A DNA stretch of 7,936 nucleotides from Octopus sinensis (lineage: Eukaryota). The stretch is from NCBI RefSeq assembly GCF_006345805.1, contig NW_021828601.1, positions 1 through 7,936 of the forward strand. The letters are read 5' to 3'. A program made the translations under genes and the position numbers. The notes beneath the pieces are model-generated. The model saw only the letters and a list, made by a program, of their open reading frames with translations, ran no database searches and had not been told where the DNA came from. Positions within the stretch are counted from its first letter, which is position 1; every line of letters begins with the position of its first letter. Below are positions 2,818-7,936 of this stretch, one piece after another.

Positions 2818-2998
<181 letters not shown>

Positions 2999-2999
2999 C

Positions 3000-3686
3000 A
3001 GCAGCTCTGCCGACCGGGGTCAAACTTGTGCAACTTACAAACGACTAAAGCGTTCTATAGAGGACTAGTGGAGGGGAGGTCCGACGACACACTCGGGGCA
3101 AACCTGGGCGTCGACGAGAAACTCTTAACCCGCCTGTTCAGGACGACGTTCGGGCCAGGGCCTATGGATAACTTCCAGAAATCCCTGACATGGCAATGCT
3201 ATCGAGACGCACTACCTGTTCGAGAGAAGAGCTACAGGCACGGTTCGAAAACCATCACCGGACCGACCTGCCCGAGATGCGGTCAGAGCGACGAAACCGT
3301 TCTGCACGCACTCGTGCAGTGTCCAGATATTTCAGAGCTGTGGACCTTCGTCGAACAGCCGTTGTCGCGTGTAGGACGGGCCCGCTTATCGGCCCCGAGT
3401 CTATCGTGAATATTGTTCCACCACCTTCCTTTAAACGGGAAGGAAAACGGTTTTCGTTACGCTGATGGCTATGGCGAAAGAATGTGTGTGGGGACGCGTT
3501 TGAAAGGACTCCAACAAACCCTTCCTCTCTGGTCAGTCTCTCGTCAACTTTTTCAAGTACCACTTGAAAAGGAGGATGAGAATAGAGAGGAAGGCTTTGT
3601 CGAACGAATGTTTTAATAAAAAGTGGGTAAAAGTTGCAAAAATGGTCAGTATGAAAGACGACACTATTTTAAGCGTAAATCTGTAA
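3000..3686 (+). pseudogene. ORF2 C-terminal remnant of copy 1 (CCHC zinc knuckle), frameshifted
   Basis: In frame with the 2756..3409 ORF up to ~3390, then frameshifted. Ends ...[45 protein letters not shown], homologous to the ends of copies 2 and 3. Confidence 0.88.
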
Positions 3687-3704
3687 CCAAAAGAGAACTG
3701 TCTG

Positions 3705-3877
3705 AGGTGACCTTGGTCTTTTTTGTAGGTTTTTCTTTCCAGGGCTACACCTAAACTGTGAACTTTATATATATATATTACTTTTTTATACACCACACAA
3801 CCCACAGATCCCTATTGATCAAACGTTTTTTCTTTGTGTGTCCCACCCATCCCACCTCGAAAAGAAAAAACTCTACA
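3705..3877 (+). other. Predicted 3'UTR RNA pseudoknot/triple helix, copy 1
   Basis: Stem 1: AGGTG-A-CCTTGG (3705-3716) with CCAGGG-CTA-CACCT (3739-3752). Loop strand TTTTTCTTT (3730-3738) is complementary to AAAGAAAAA (3861-3869). TCTTTTTT (3717-3724) is the candidate third strand. Confidence 0.55.
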
Positions 3878-3930
3878 TTGTATTTCGTCCATTTTTATTC
3901 GACAATTAGTGTTTAGCCCTGTGTGGCCAC

Positions 3931-3936
3931 AATAAA
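3931..3936 (+). promoter_or_regulatory. AATAAA polyadenylation-signal-like hexamer at the 3' end of copy 1
   Basis: Lies 4 nt before the (TATC)n junction; the same position is conserved in copy 2. Confidence 0.6.
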
Positions 3937-3939
3937 AAG

Positions 3940-3940
<1 letters not shown>

Positions 3941-4022
<82 letters not shown>

Positions 4023-4031
4023 CCTATCTAC

Positions 4032-4067
<36 letters not shown>

Positions 4068-4089
4068 ATCTATCTATCCCTTTGTCTGC

Positions 4090-4139
<50 letters not shown>

Positions 4140-4150
4140 TCTATCTATAT
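3941..4150. repeat. Array B: (TATC)20, interrupted TATC/TACC, (TGTC)8, (TATC)6
   Basis: TATC 3941-4020, TGTC 4090-4121, TATC 4122-4145. Confidence 0.97.
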
Positions 4151-4378
4151 TTCTGATCAATCTCTCATCAACTTCTTCAAGTACCACTTGAAAAGGAAAG
4201 TGAGAGTAGAGAGGCAAGTTTTGTCTAGCGAATGTTTTAAAAAAAGATGGGTGAATGTAGCAAGGATGGCACGTATGAATGACGAAGCCAACTTGAGCAT
4301 AGTCCTATGAACCCAGAAATTGAAAACAGAGGGTTACCCACTTGCAAACAAATGTGGTAACATATAACAATATTGACC

Positions 4379-4677
4379 GAGGTTACCGTGGTCTTTTTCG
4401 TAGGCTTTTCTTCCCACGGATAAACCTCATCTGCTTTCCCCCTTTACACCGTACATCATGACACTGTGATACACGATCCCTATTGATCGTTTTTTTTCTT
4501 CCTCTTCCTCCTTTTTCCTCTTTTTCTTTTTTCCTTTTTCTTTTCTTTTGTTTCTTTTTTCTCCTTTTTTTTCTTTTTTCCCTTTCACGATCCCTTTTGA
4601 TCGAAAATCTACGCCACTTTTTTTTGTTTCTCTTGTTTTTTTGTTTTTTTTTTCATCCCCCAAAAGAAAAGCTCTAC
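4379..4677 (+). other. Predicted 3'UTR RNA pseudoknot/triple helix, copy 2
   Basis: Stem 1: GAGGTT-A-CCGTGG (4379-4391) with CCACGG-ATA-AACCTC (4414-4428). Loop strand GCTTTTCTT (4404-4412) is perfectly complementary to AAGAAAAGC (4664-4672). TCTTTTT (4392-4398) is the candidate third strand. Confidence 0.58.
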
Positions 4678-4716
4678 CTTGTAATTTGTCCCATCTATGT
4701 GCAGCCCTATGTGGCC

Positions 4717-4722
4717 AATAAA
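4717..4722 (+). promoter_or_regulatory. AATAAA polyadenylation-signal-like hexamer at the 3' end of copy 2
   Basis: Lies 6 nt before the (TATC)n junction, after the shared motif AGCCCTRTGTGGCC. Confidence 0.6.
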
Positions 4723-4727
4723 GAAAC

Positions 4728-4728
<1 letters not shown>

Positions 4729-4825
<97 letters not shown>
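4729..4825. repeat. Array C: pure (TATC)24
   Basis: 4729-4824 is 24 uninterrupted TATC units, plus T. Confidence 0.98.
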
Positions 4826-7800
4826 GGGGGATTGGAATGCTACCTTGGACACGCATGTAGACTACGTGGGTAGAGATAGGAATAGACGGGGATGCAAATG
4901 CCTCAGAGACCTGCTCAGACGCTTTCAACTGTCTGACAGGTTCCGACTAGACCACCCGAATGCGCCAACGTGGACATGGAGCAACCGCATCGGGTCGTCG
5001 AGATCGTATCTAGATAGGATACTGTGTAGGACAGTAGACAGAGATAGCATAGGATGTCCACAATTCCACATAGTCAGCTACAAGGATCACAAAACTTGTG
5101 ACATGTACGCTAGACTTAGGTAAGACACTTAGGCAGGTCCCGGATACTGGAAACTAAACGCGTCTTTCCATCGAGACAGGTTTTCAGAGACCGGATTAGC
5201 ACACTAGTAAAGAGGGCTTTGACGGGAGCCATCATCAACAACAAATGGTGGTTTGCCCTCAAGAGAGCAGTAAAAGCAGAAGCGATTAGGTACAGCAAAG
5301 CACTAGCCATAGATAGAAATAGAGTAGAGGGTGAGCTAGTTAAGAAGCTAGAAGAGGCAATTAGAAGCGGCATCGCACCCGACGTTTTGGCGGCGAGGTT
5401 GGCCCTCGACCAACACTTCAACGCCAAACACGAAGGATGTGCTGTCAGAGCTAGGATGCGTGCTCTAAGGAACGAAGGTGTTGGAGCCGCGAGAGAGGCC
5501 CGGGTGGCAACAGGGCAACAGGGCAACAAAGCCACCATTCGGTCCCTGGTAGATGAACAGGGGCGCGAATTGCTCGAGCCAAGTAAAATGTGTGAGGCCT
5601 TTCAGCAGCATTTTGCCCGACTGTTCGGGACGAGTGGAGGGCAAGAACGTAGGGTGGACTTCAGTGCCTACCTACATAGCCTACCACGACTCTCGACAAG
5701 AAAGGCAGTGTGCTGCGAAGGTGCCATCACGGCGGTGGAAGTGCAGGACGCGATGGCAGAATGCTCGAGGGACAAATCGCCGGGTTTGGATGGTCTACCC
5801 TACGAGCTTTACAATTGTATGCCAGACTTGTTTGGAGATCTCTGGCGGCGGTGTACTGCAAACTGGCAGCAAAACGGGAGCATCCTGGTTTTGTGAGCCG
5901 AGGGCCGTAAGTTGCTGCTGAAGAAAGATCTAAACAAGGGAAATGTAATATATAACTTTAGCCCATCACTCTGGCTTAATGCAGACTTGAAAATTTTGGC
6001 CAAGGTGCTAGCCAAGAGGTTGGCGCTGCTTGTCACGAGAAACTGGTCGACAGGCGCAACATGCGCCGTGCCAGGCCGGACCATCCATGACAACCTCCAC
6101 CTGATGCGCTACATCATAGACAGGGTAGTTAACGAACCTGGCATGGGTGGGGCGCTGATCAATTTGGATCAATCGAAAGCTTTCGATAGGGTAGACCATC
6201 GATACTTGGAGGCGGTCCTCAGAGCGGCTGGCTTCGGTCCCGTCTTCCGTGGCTGGATAGCCGCTTTGTACAGAGGCATCAGTTCGGTAATTCGCGTGAA
6301 TGGACATCTATCGAGACCCTTCGACATCGCACGTTCGGTCCGTCAGGGATGCCCCCTCTCGTCGCTTCTATACGTATTGACTCTCGAGCCATTATTGCGG
6401 AAGCTGGCAACTTTGAGGGGCATCCCGCGAGAACTGGGATGCGTGACGAGCGTGACTGCATACGCGGACGACGTCACCGTCATAGTGTCTAGCCACGAGC
6501 ACATCGAGCAGGTCGGCGAGACACTGAAAAACTACGAAGCGGTGAGAGGAGCGAAAATCAACCGGGAAAAGTCAGTGGGCTTGCGACTAGGCACCTGGAG
6601 AAGCAAGGCCATGCCGTCCACCAGCGCCTCCGTCGTGGGACGCTGGACCGACGGCCCGTTGAGTTGCGTCGGGGTCTGGTTTGGTCAGGACCTCCAAGTG
6701 GAGAAGAACTGGAACGAGATAACGAGTAGGGTGGTCACTCTCGCCCGGCAATGGGCCGAGAGGAAACGGTCCCTAAAAGGGTCGGCGGAGGTGGCGAACA
6801 CGTACATCGCGTCCGTCATCTACTACGCCTGAACCGTCGTAGCTTGTCCCGACCCTACCATCACCAAACTACAACGCATTCTCTTTCGCTTCTTGTGGAA
6901 GGATGCGTCCCGATGGTCAGGCGATCCATTTGCTGTCAACACCGCTAAATGGAGGGCTGGGCATGCCGTAGTTGATGATGCGCAGACACGCGCTGAGACT
7001 GCGACATCTCTGGCTCTATGTAGACGACGGTGAACAGGTGTGGTCGCCGTTTGTGAGGCACGCTTTCCCACAGATCGTCTCTATGACGAACTGCAGTCGT
7101 GGATCAAAAAGAGCCGAGAAAGGGCGAATGGCACCGCGAGTGTCGCGTTGCTCTCAAGCAACTCTGCCGTCCTGGGTCGACCTTGAGTGACTTCAACACA
7201 AAAGCATTCTATAGGGGATTAGTGGAGGGGAGGTACGACGACGAGCTCGGGGCGAACCTGGACGTCGACGAGGAGTACCTGACCCGCCTGTTAGGACGAC
7301 TTTCGGGCCAGGGCCCATGGACAACTTCCAGAGATCCCTGCCTGGCAGTGTTACGAGAAGCGCTACCGTTCGGGATAAGCTCTACAGACACGGCTCGAGA
7401 AACACGGGGGCCGACTGCCCGAGATGCGGTCAGAGCGACCGAAACCGTTTGCACGCACTCGTGCAGTGTCCAACAATTTCCGACCTGTGGGCTTGTGTCG
7501 AACAAACTGCTGTCACGTGTGGGACGAGTCGGTTTATCAGCTGAATCTATCGTCAATATTGTCACGCCTCCTTCCTTCAAACGGGAAGGAAGAGCTATTT
7601 TCATCATCCTTGTGGCTATGGCGAAAGAATGTATCTGGTGGACGCGTCTGAAAGGATTGGAGACAAACACTTTCCTCTCTGGTCAATCTTCATCAACTTC
7701 TTCAAGTACCACTTGGAAAAGGAAAGTGAGAGTAGAGAGGCAAGTTTTGTCTAGCGAATGTTTTAAAAAACAGATGGGTGAATGTAGCAAGGATGGCAGG

Positions 7801-7936
7801 TATGAAGACGAAGCCACCTTGAGCATAGTCCTATGAACCCAGAAATTGAAAACAGAGGGTTACCCACTTGCAAACAAATGTGGTAACATAAACAATATTG
7901 ACCAAGGTTACCGTGGTCTTTTTCGTAGGCTTTTTT
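4826..7936 (+). mobile_element. Copy 3: 5'-truncated L1/Tx1-type non-LTR retrotransposon (APE-RT-CCHC), runs off the window end within its 3'UTR
   Basis: The domain order APE endonuclease, RT, CCHC knuckle is typical of L1/Tx1 ORF2. ORF1 and the N-terminal half of APE are missing. Tx1 versus other L1-group placement is inferred from motif style and apparent target specificity, not from a tree. Confidence 0.93.
4827..7836 (+). pseudogene. ORF2 polyprotein remnant (APE endonuclease C-half, reverse transcriptase, CCHC), multiply frameshifted
   Basis: APE motifs: GDWN (4827-4838), PTWTW, SYLDRI, KDH (5082-5090), then GYWKLN (5142-5159). RT motifs: KSPGLDGL, NADLKILAKVLA, LDQSKAFDRVDH, RQGCPLS (Q at 6344), YADD (6461-6472), GAKINREKS. 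Then GGLGMP, CPRC..H....C (7416-7469) and stop TGA at 7834-7836. Confidence 0.93.

Follow-up and report, generated by a model that had tools for sequence, protein, structure and literature searches.

Poly(A)-only, relaxed template choice has its textbook example in the L1 clade. Stringent LINEs such as ZfL2 and monocot L1 carry a conserved terminal hairpin with compensatory change (compare PMC3747384), and in zebrafish LINEs the ORF2 protein binds the 3′ stem-loop of its own element (PMC4176376). Avian and turtle R2 proteins bind a 3′-UTR pseudoknot-hinge-stem, and compensatory mutants rescue insertion (PMC12180492); in that paper, the word "triple" appears a single time, with reference to amino acids. 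Targeting of microsatellites is established for Kibi, Koshi, and crocodilian Tx1 (PMC4494074), and L1-Tx1 families with recent activity are described in O. vulgaris (PMC13282606). A pseudoknot is not mentioned for microsatellite Tx1 or for stringent LINE stem-loops in the available portions of the literature cited here.

The triple helix of K. lactis telomerase RNA consists of five U.A-U triples and one C.G-C triple (PMC7583470), and the ratio of loop to stem in telomerase pseudoknots is about 1:1 in human (8:9), 1:2 in K. lactis, and about 1:3 in Tetrahymena (PMC5224487). The definition of the ENE, together with the C/G interruptions and genomically encoded A-tract of MALAT1, is given in section 13 of PMC7583470; the transposable-element ENEs named in the parts of the reviews at hand occur in elements of plants, fungi, and slime moulds and in fish-retrovirus elements, none of them non-LTR. 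Pseudoknots in non-LTR 3′-UTRs and triple helices in transposable-element RNAs are each known already; our searches of open-licence literature found no report of either structure in a Tx1/L1 3′-UTR, nor one of a major-groove triple helix in any non-LTR 3′-UTR.

LINE copies in the window

The window, i.e., the whole 7,936-nt stretch that we analysed, holds three LINE copies on the same strand (+, as for all features given below), all of them 5′-truncated and set among (TATC)n arrays. Copy 1 (2995-3940) comprises a frameshifted ORF2 C-terminus with zf-RVT, the ORF2 stop (3684-3686), and a 3′-UTR of 254 nt (3687-3940). Copy 2 (4152-4728) retains only the last ORF2 codons, with the stop at 4308-4310, and a 3′-UTR of 418 nt (4311-4728). 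Copy 3 (4826-7936) is degenerate and frameshifted, contains the end of the APE endonuclease, RT, zf-RVT, and the start of the 3′-UTR, and ends with the window. The arrays occupy 2818-2998 (5′ of copy 1, the likely target), 3941-4148 (between copies 1 and 2), and 4729-4825 (between copies 2 and 3). Because copies 2 and 3 are 98% identical (251/255) and copies 1 and 3 only 82% (555/679), we distinguish two subfamilies, A (copy 1) and B (copies 2 and 3). All five junctions visible in the window abut (TATC)n arrays or fall within a few bases of them, amounting at this one locus to target-specific insertion into multicopy sequence, and poly(A) is absent at both complete 3′ junctions (copies 1 and 2).

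Judged from its protein domains, the element is an L1/Tx1-type LINE. Pfam found RVT_1 and zf-RVT; Exo_endo_phos fell below the cut-off in the truncated window piece and above it in a relative, P0005, and the resulting ORF2 layout (N-terminal APE, RT, C-terminal zinc knuckle) is that of the L1 clade and Tx1 group. The best PDB match of the full-length P0005 was human L1 ORF2p (E = 9e-69), with R2 at 5e-16. The closest named protein was from Argonauta hians (64% across the RT region), a cuttlefish protein reaching 44%, which makes an octopod the likely host. Kibi, Koshi, and crocodilian Tx1 share both the APE-RT-zinc knuckle ORF2 and insertion into microsatellites (PMC4494074); the target here, however, is (TATC)n instead of (TC)n, (TTC)n, (TTCC)n, or (TTTC)n, and poly(A) is lacking here.

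A candidate pseudoknot in the 3′-UTR

A sequence-only reading of this DNA had claimed a covarying 3′-UTR pseudoknot with triple-helix geometry in copies 1 and 2. The UTR lengths it gave and the positions of all its sequence blocks were confirmed. We predict 24 pairs, 11 in a local stem (S1) and 13 in a long-range stem (S2). In copy 1, the S1 5′ strand (3705-3716) pairs with the S1 3′ strand (3739-3752) through 3705-3709/3748-3752 and 3711-3716/3739-3744, loop 1, the predicted Hoogsteen third strand, spans 3717-3724, and the S2 5′ strand (3725-3737, GUAG plus a pyrimidine tract) pairs with 3862-3876, which consists of a purine tract, a bulged A and U, and CUAC. In copy 2, the S1 strands are 4380-4391 and 4414-4427 (pairs 4380-4384/4423-4427 and 4386-4391/4414-4419), loop 1 as predicted third strand is 4392-4399, and the S2 strands are 4400-4412 and 4664-4677, the latter with its purine tract, bulged U4673, and CUAC forming a 13-bp duplex (-15.6 kcal/mol). 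From 5′ to 3′, the S1 5′ strand is followed by an 8-nt loop 1 and the S2 5′ strand; a single base then leads to the S1 3′ strand, after which come a long linker and the purine tract with CUAC. This is the topology of an H-type pseudoknot. The 13 bp of S2 take in the proposed GTAG/CTAC extension, GUAG/CUAC being invariant.

The 48-nt hairpin block has eight differences between copies 1 and 2, and the linkers, 109 nt in copy 1 vs. 236 nt in copy 2, align poorly. A small GAUC hairpin lies in the copy 1 linker (3807-3820) and recurs at 4475 and 4589 in copy 2. S1 begins 18 nt after the stop codon in copy 1 and 69 nt after it in copy 2, the insert variants described below giving about 55 nt; subfamily B has a hairpin in this interval (4333-4361, -9.5 kcal/mol). 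The purine tract is internal, 39-54 nt 5′ of AAUAAA. Of copy 3, whose continuation beyond the window end the earlier reading had named as a further place to look, positions 7905-7936 supply the S1 5′ strand and loop 1, and the S2 5′ strand is nearly complete where the window stops; a C>T change at 7935 removes the C of the S2 C-G pair.

Covariation and chance expectation

Three of the 24 pairs differ between subfamilies A and B, each by a double change, and none is broken: G-C/U-A and U.G/G-C (copy 1/copy 2) in S1, and U-A/C-G in S2. Under neutrality, the probability that all pairs are kept with at least three double changes is 7.5e-6 to 5.0e-5 at 12.5-25% per-site divergence, and three doubles arose in 26 of 2,000,000 trials when six changes were placed randomly on the 48 paired sites, figures that overstate the surprise because the structure was chosen post hoc on these sequences. 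We also wrote a descriptor (S1 of at least 6 bp, S2 of at least 8 Watson-Crick bp, and a 6-nt parallel match), composed after the motif was seen; on both strands of the window it matched only the copy 1 and copy 2 sites. For each copy, 3000 shuffles were made of each of three types (dinucleotide, 30-nt local, and 15-nt local). The descriptor matched 0, 0, and 1 per 3000 of these for copy 1 and 3, 2, and 3 per 3000 for copy 2, and at the observed stem lengths 0/3000 in all six sets, the post hoc choice of structure again making the counts look more surprising than they are. The covariation amounts to two double changes in S1 and one in S2 in a comparison of two subfamilies. Overall, we regard the S1 + S2 pseudoknot as probably real and under selection.

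Further copies of subfamily A

Contigs of four public runs (X1, X9, X10, and X18, from four organisms; 4 of 20 runs with matches) were aligned on 3500-3942, with likeness of at least 80% and variant rows counted from 4% of depth up. Position 3742 is A in 97% (X1), 92% (X9), and 84% (X10) of contig depth, and in the thinly covered X18 in only 4.8 of 39. Given the majority in X1, X9, and X10, the usual subfamily A pair 3713/3742 is U-A, and the change from A to B is U-A to G-C. The S1 compensatory changes proposed by the sequence-only reading stand as double changes, with the U-G of copy 1 atypical of its subfamily. The S2 covariation it proposed likewise stands as a U-A/C-G double change, with a qualification: the purine tract of copy 1 has six A after G3864 vs. 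five U opposite, so that S2 of copy 1 must bulge out an A as well as the U. A tract shorter by one A after G3864 makes up just 16%, 3%, and 3.5% of depth, leaving six A as the majority state in subfamily A.

No variant row of at least 4% fell in loop 1, at C3735, or at G3864 in the contigs, and variant rows were not significantly rarer in the motif (2/63 positions) than elsewhere in the UTR (11/161; Fisher P = 0.36). T3730C occurs at 5.5% (X1) and 10% (X10), and the contigs carrying it list no partner change in 3865-3870 and none at 3724. Between subfamilies, position 8 of loop 1 changes from U to C alongside the U-A to C-G pair. We weighed a three-way covariation of 3724/3730/3870 on this basis and do not claim it, as subfamily B is shifted by one position in register and the C3730 contigs have no listed change at 3724. 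At C3832, in a local tract that competes for the purine tract (see below), T accounts for 53%, 88%, and 76% of depth.

Six contigs carry an insert of 36-39 nt directly 5′ of S1 (window 3695-3697) that is absent from copy 1. Four of the six share the same 5-bp hairpin closed by three different GNRA loops, and subfamily B has another hairpin in this place (4333-4361); comparison of these sequences suggests that the hairpins with differing GNRA loops are a sign of RNA-level selection in the UTR. Loop 1 together with GUAG/G (3717-3729 and 4392-4404) resembles a 3′ splice-site consensus. None of the seven contig joints listed lands at 3729, a weak observation that concerns contigs only, and no RNA run was among the sequencing runs listed as carrying the element.

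Predicted folding

S1 is the minimum free energy structure of both 61-nt pieces, with z of only -0.5 and -1.7. ViennaRNA, which models neither pseudoknots nor triples, gave S1 pair probabilities of 0.72-0.97 in copy 2 and 0.22-0.24 in copy 1. For S2 it gave 0.0 in either UTR, and blocking the S1 3′ strand did not change this; S2 was outcompeted by 11-bp local U-tract partners at 3825-3835 (copy 1, variable among copies) and 4540-4550 (copy 2), which sit at non-homologous and variable places. As bare duplexes, S2 is stronger than the local partner (-10.8 vs. -9.9 in copy 1; -15.6 vs. -10.4 in copy 2), and in neither UTR does the loop have a better duplex partner than S2 (-11.5 vs. -7.7; -15.9 vs. 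-10.0). Since S2 loses to local partners in ViennaRNA, it likely needs base triples or protein if it forms. This is so in telomerase pseudoknots, whose stems are weakened or do not form once the triples are lost (PMC5224487).

Comparison with telomerase and ENE triple helices

Loop 1 runs parallel to the purine strand from the helix junction and would contribute one U.A-U, one C.G-C, and four U.A-U triples. The parallel match of the first pyrimidine tract to the purine tract, part of the original claim, is borne out at 8 nt in subfamily A (to 3863-3870) and 6 nt in B (to 4665-4670). The single C of loop 1 faces the single G of the tract, and the register begins at the helix junction in both subfamilies. 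Formation of a U.A-U/C.G-C major-groove triple helix is plausible and slightly favoured.

The motif resembles the telomerase pseudoknot in being H-type, in its U-rich loop 1, which runs in parallel with the stem 2 purine strand, and in its prospective reverse transcriptase partner. The predicted count of five U.A-U and one C.G-C equals that of K. lactis. Human telomerase P3 has a bulged U in stem 2, as S2 does here. The loop:stem ratio of 8:13 lies between the human and K. lactis ratios. This eases the earlier caveat that an 8-nt loop may be too short, the telomerase range in the available part of PMC5224487 being 1:1 to 1:3. The motif differs from telomerase RNA in lying in a LINE 3′-UTR, in having no template domain, and in its long and variable second loop (109-236 nt), in which an A-rich minor-groove strand was not identified. 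We rejected membership in telomerase RNA, the motif being part of a LINE 3′-UTR with no Rfam telomerase match at E ≤ 5; the likeness is assumed to be convergence. Rfam returned 34 matches at E ≤ 5, none at gathering score, and the sole match touching the motif, S. pombe snR10 (E = 1.9), is taken as chance.

As in ENEs, MALAT1/MEN-beta, and the transposable-element ENEs of Evade and TWIFB1, two pyrimidine tracts could clamp one A-rich strand, and the C/G interruptions and genomically encoded A-tract recall MALAT1. ENEs have an upper stem between the U-tracts, whereas here there is none, GUAG pairs downstream instead, and the arrangement is not poly(A)-compatible. We therefore rejected an ENE identity: the 22-nt hairpin loop is without an upper stem, the tract is internal, the tracts are C-interrupted, and the junctions are without poly(A). 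The MALAT1/MEN-beta layout was rejected as well, since the A-rich tract is not at the RNA 3′ end and there is no tRNA-like element (ARAGORN: 0 tRNA-like genes). Of the geometry first proposed, the covarying, telomerase-like H-type pseudoknot was retained and the ENE was not.

Relatives and the terminal hairpin

Scanning prokaryote genomes yielded 69 loci, mostly tandem arrays of two related families (~44% aa to the query) in one metagenome-assembled genome (MAG). Loci L001-L058, L060, and L066-L069 belong to this MAG, CAXXMW01 of the GTDB collection, which is filed as uncultured Arenicella sp.; its matched contigs are head-to-tail arrays, with a unit of ~6.5 kb, of intact two-ORF Tx1-type LINEs of two families, evidently animal host DNA in a bacterial MAG. 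A metagenome scan gave more distant relatives, represented here by the best 80 of 358 loci. In an RT tree of 33 rows (midpoint root; 6/24 proteins and 2/16 loci dropped, having no anchor motif), the window element, three close proteins, both MAG families, and the cuttlefish protein fall in a clade of 17 rows (100/100). U2- and 5S-flanked elements fall outside it in this midpoint-rooted tree, which contains no named Tx1 reference or outgroup. Among the distant Tx1-type loci, L061, L062, and L099 (two of them in bacterial MAGs) have poly(A) followed by what we take, by eye, to be 5S rRNA-like sequence, and L073 has poly(A) followed by presumably U2 snRNA-like sequence, cf. Mutsu/Keno. Protein cluster look-up gave no name for P0001 and P0091, and only "hypothetical protein" for P0003. 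Broad RT patterns found none in viral contigs, and clade-specific C-terminal protein patterns none in viral, metagenome, or genome contigs.

Both complete copies end in a terminal hairpin followed by AAUAAA and no poly(A): in copy 1 the hairpin is at 3916-3927 and AAUAAA at 3931-3936 (feature 3916-3936), and in copy 2 at 4704-4715 and 4717-4722 (feature 4704-4722). The hairpin has 3 bp, SSS-CU(N1-2)GU-SSS, stands just before AAUAAA, and has its middle pair swapped between families. It is present in both window copies and 61/69 loci (e.g., L001:6459, L003:6406) and in 0/80 distant loci, and all 70 matches are on the element (+) strand. No poly(A) was seen after AAUAAA in the MAG arrays inspected. 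The window copies and these loci have the conserved 3′-terminal stem-loop that characterises stringent-type LINEs and, as in ZfL2 and monocot L1, it is a terminal hairpin with compensatory change. By analogy, the clade seems to belong to the stringent type, with the terminal hairpin as likely primary signal. The sequence-only reading did not list this hairpin; from its distribution it seems a better candidate than the pseudoknot for the primary ORF2p signal.

The 3′-UTRs of relatives (78 from 76/149 loci with an intact ORF2 end, in 21 clusters) were searched for the motif. A relaxed descriptor matched 1/21 clusters, at an A5 run beyond AAUAAA, and the default descriptor on both strands of 157 loci (2.08 Mb) matched two places, both on the minus strand. 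A two-sequence covariance model on the window and 99/157 loci found the three window copies only (next best E = 1.7). The motif pattern matched 0 viral contigs and 8 loci in prokaryote genomes, of which 0/8 had the full descriptor, i.e., chance. As far as these sequences indicate, the pseudoknot motif is not required across the clade, being absent from all relatives examined.

In both MAG families, the start of the UTR pairs with a segment ~70-100 nt 5′ of AAUAAA in a homologous 11-bp helix, which has two double changes between the two families and no purine tract. S2 has the same position and effect as this closing helix, with unrelated sequence. The two families (L003:5732-6440 and L001:5762-6490) have highly structured 3′-UTRs of ~700 nt with invariant helices, and each also has a pyrimidine tract 5′ of the terminal hairpin that is able to pair with purines in the middle of the UTR.

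Proposed role and alternatives

We propose, as a tentative model, that the compensated 3′-UTR pairs fold as an H-type pseudoknot, predicted to be triple-clamped, that forms part of an ORF2p-binding module for TPRT. S1 would fold first and its loop would wait for the purine tract, whereupon S2 and the base triples would win over local U-tracts, and looping out of the variable linker would bring the pseudoknot to 26-39 nt from the terminal hairpin. ORF2p would then dock on this compact RNA end, and the nicked target would be paired by transcript read-through into (UAUC)n, accounting for the lack of poly(A). In the window lineage, the UTR-closing long-range helix of the clade would be a pseudoknot stem. 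The best reading of these predictions would be a lineage-specific tertiary fold that loops out the variable linker and builds an ORF2p docking module. The closest analogy is the R2 pseudoknot-hinge-stem, likewise from a non-LTR element, in which the pseudoknot lies just 5′ of a 3′ stem and divergent sequences share an architecture (PMC12180492); R2, as described there, differs in being of the RLE clade with a module of ~65 nt, whereas the element here has an APE endonuclease (L1/Tx1) and ORF2p binding is putative. By this analogy, a role of the pseudoknot in ORF2p docking is conceivable but short of probable. Pressing the telomerase analogy to an independently evolved telomerase-type triple helix in animal L1/Tx1, where RT would position the template for poly(A)-independent (TATC)n priming in a TERT-like way, yields a rather doubtful proposition.

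The same pseudoknot and triple helix might serve as a 3′-to-5′ decay barrier, an ENE-like function, for a transcript without or losing poly(A). Triple helices stabilise PAN, MALAT1, and transposable-element RNAs (PMC7583470, section 13), one aids the mobility of the LTR element Evade according to PMC12501189 and PMC13541005, and both complete 3′ junctions here are without poly(A). The A-rich tract, however, lies 39-54 nt 5′ of AAUAAA, within the UTR, which leaves the 3′ end unburied and makes a stability role fit less well; a stop at the tract would also cost the terminal hairpin and leave a dead template, and the C-interrupted tracts are unfit for poly(A), with no tRNA-like element present. 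We consider this function unlikely. Somewhat less unlikely is that S1 and S2 are real and loop 1 makes no stable triples, leaving a plain pseudoknot or a UTR-closing helix like that of the relatives, which has no purine tract. U-rich tracts are frequent in these UTRs, no covariation involving loop 1 is established, and loop 1 with GUAG may be kept for another reason, e.g., as a 3′ splice-site consensus (pyrimidine tract, UAG/G), against which the contig joints, none of the seven at 3729, speak weakly. Against such a structure, the lone C of loop 1 falls on the lone G of the tract, in a junction-anchored register in both subfamilies, and S2 without extra stabilisation loses to its local partners.

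The success of the 11-bp local partners in ViennaRNA in both copies, the single S2 double change, and the extra A in subfamily A would also suit a UTR in which only S1 and the terminal hairpin matter, S2 being a low-complexity U/A coincidence and the tract pairing locally or binding protein. This seems improbable, as the local partners are at non-homologous, variable places, S2 has the invariant GUAG/CUAC and outdoes every other duplex partner of the loop in either UTR, and shuffles match the descriptor in only 0-3 of 3000. Mirror pyrimidine repeats are able to form H-DNA, and the motif lies close after the stop codon, so one might also think of action as DNA or on translation, through recoding at the ORF2 stop or termination there. 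We hold either to be highly improbable: the stop-to-S1 distance varies (18, about 55, and 69 nt), the nearby GNRA loops favour RNA over DNA, and the S2 partner is 109-236 nt away and not on the opposite DNA strand.

If the docking model is true, a Tx1-type lineage without poly(A) and with a conserved hairpin plus a tertiary fold would make it practicable to study how an L1-type ORF2p recognises its template stringently, and TERT would no longer be the sole reverse transcriptase known to us as binding a natural pseudoknot triple helix. With ~65 paired nt and a linker that can be replaced, the module is small; it may serve template design for site-specific RNA-templated insertion.

Elsewhere in the window, short nonrepetitive stretches between microsatellites (449-640, 880-975, and 1320-1480) resemble fragments of SINE-type repeats common in the genome. 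Contig depth summed over 3530-3635 is several-fold above that of the 3′-UTR, which suggests further subfamilies with the same ORF2 segment and other 3′-UTRs.
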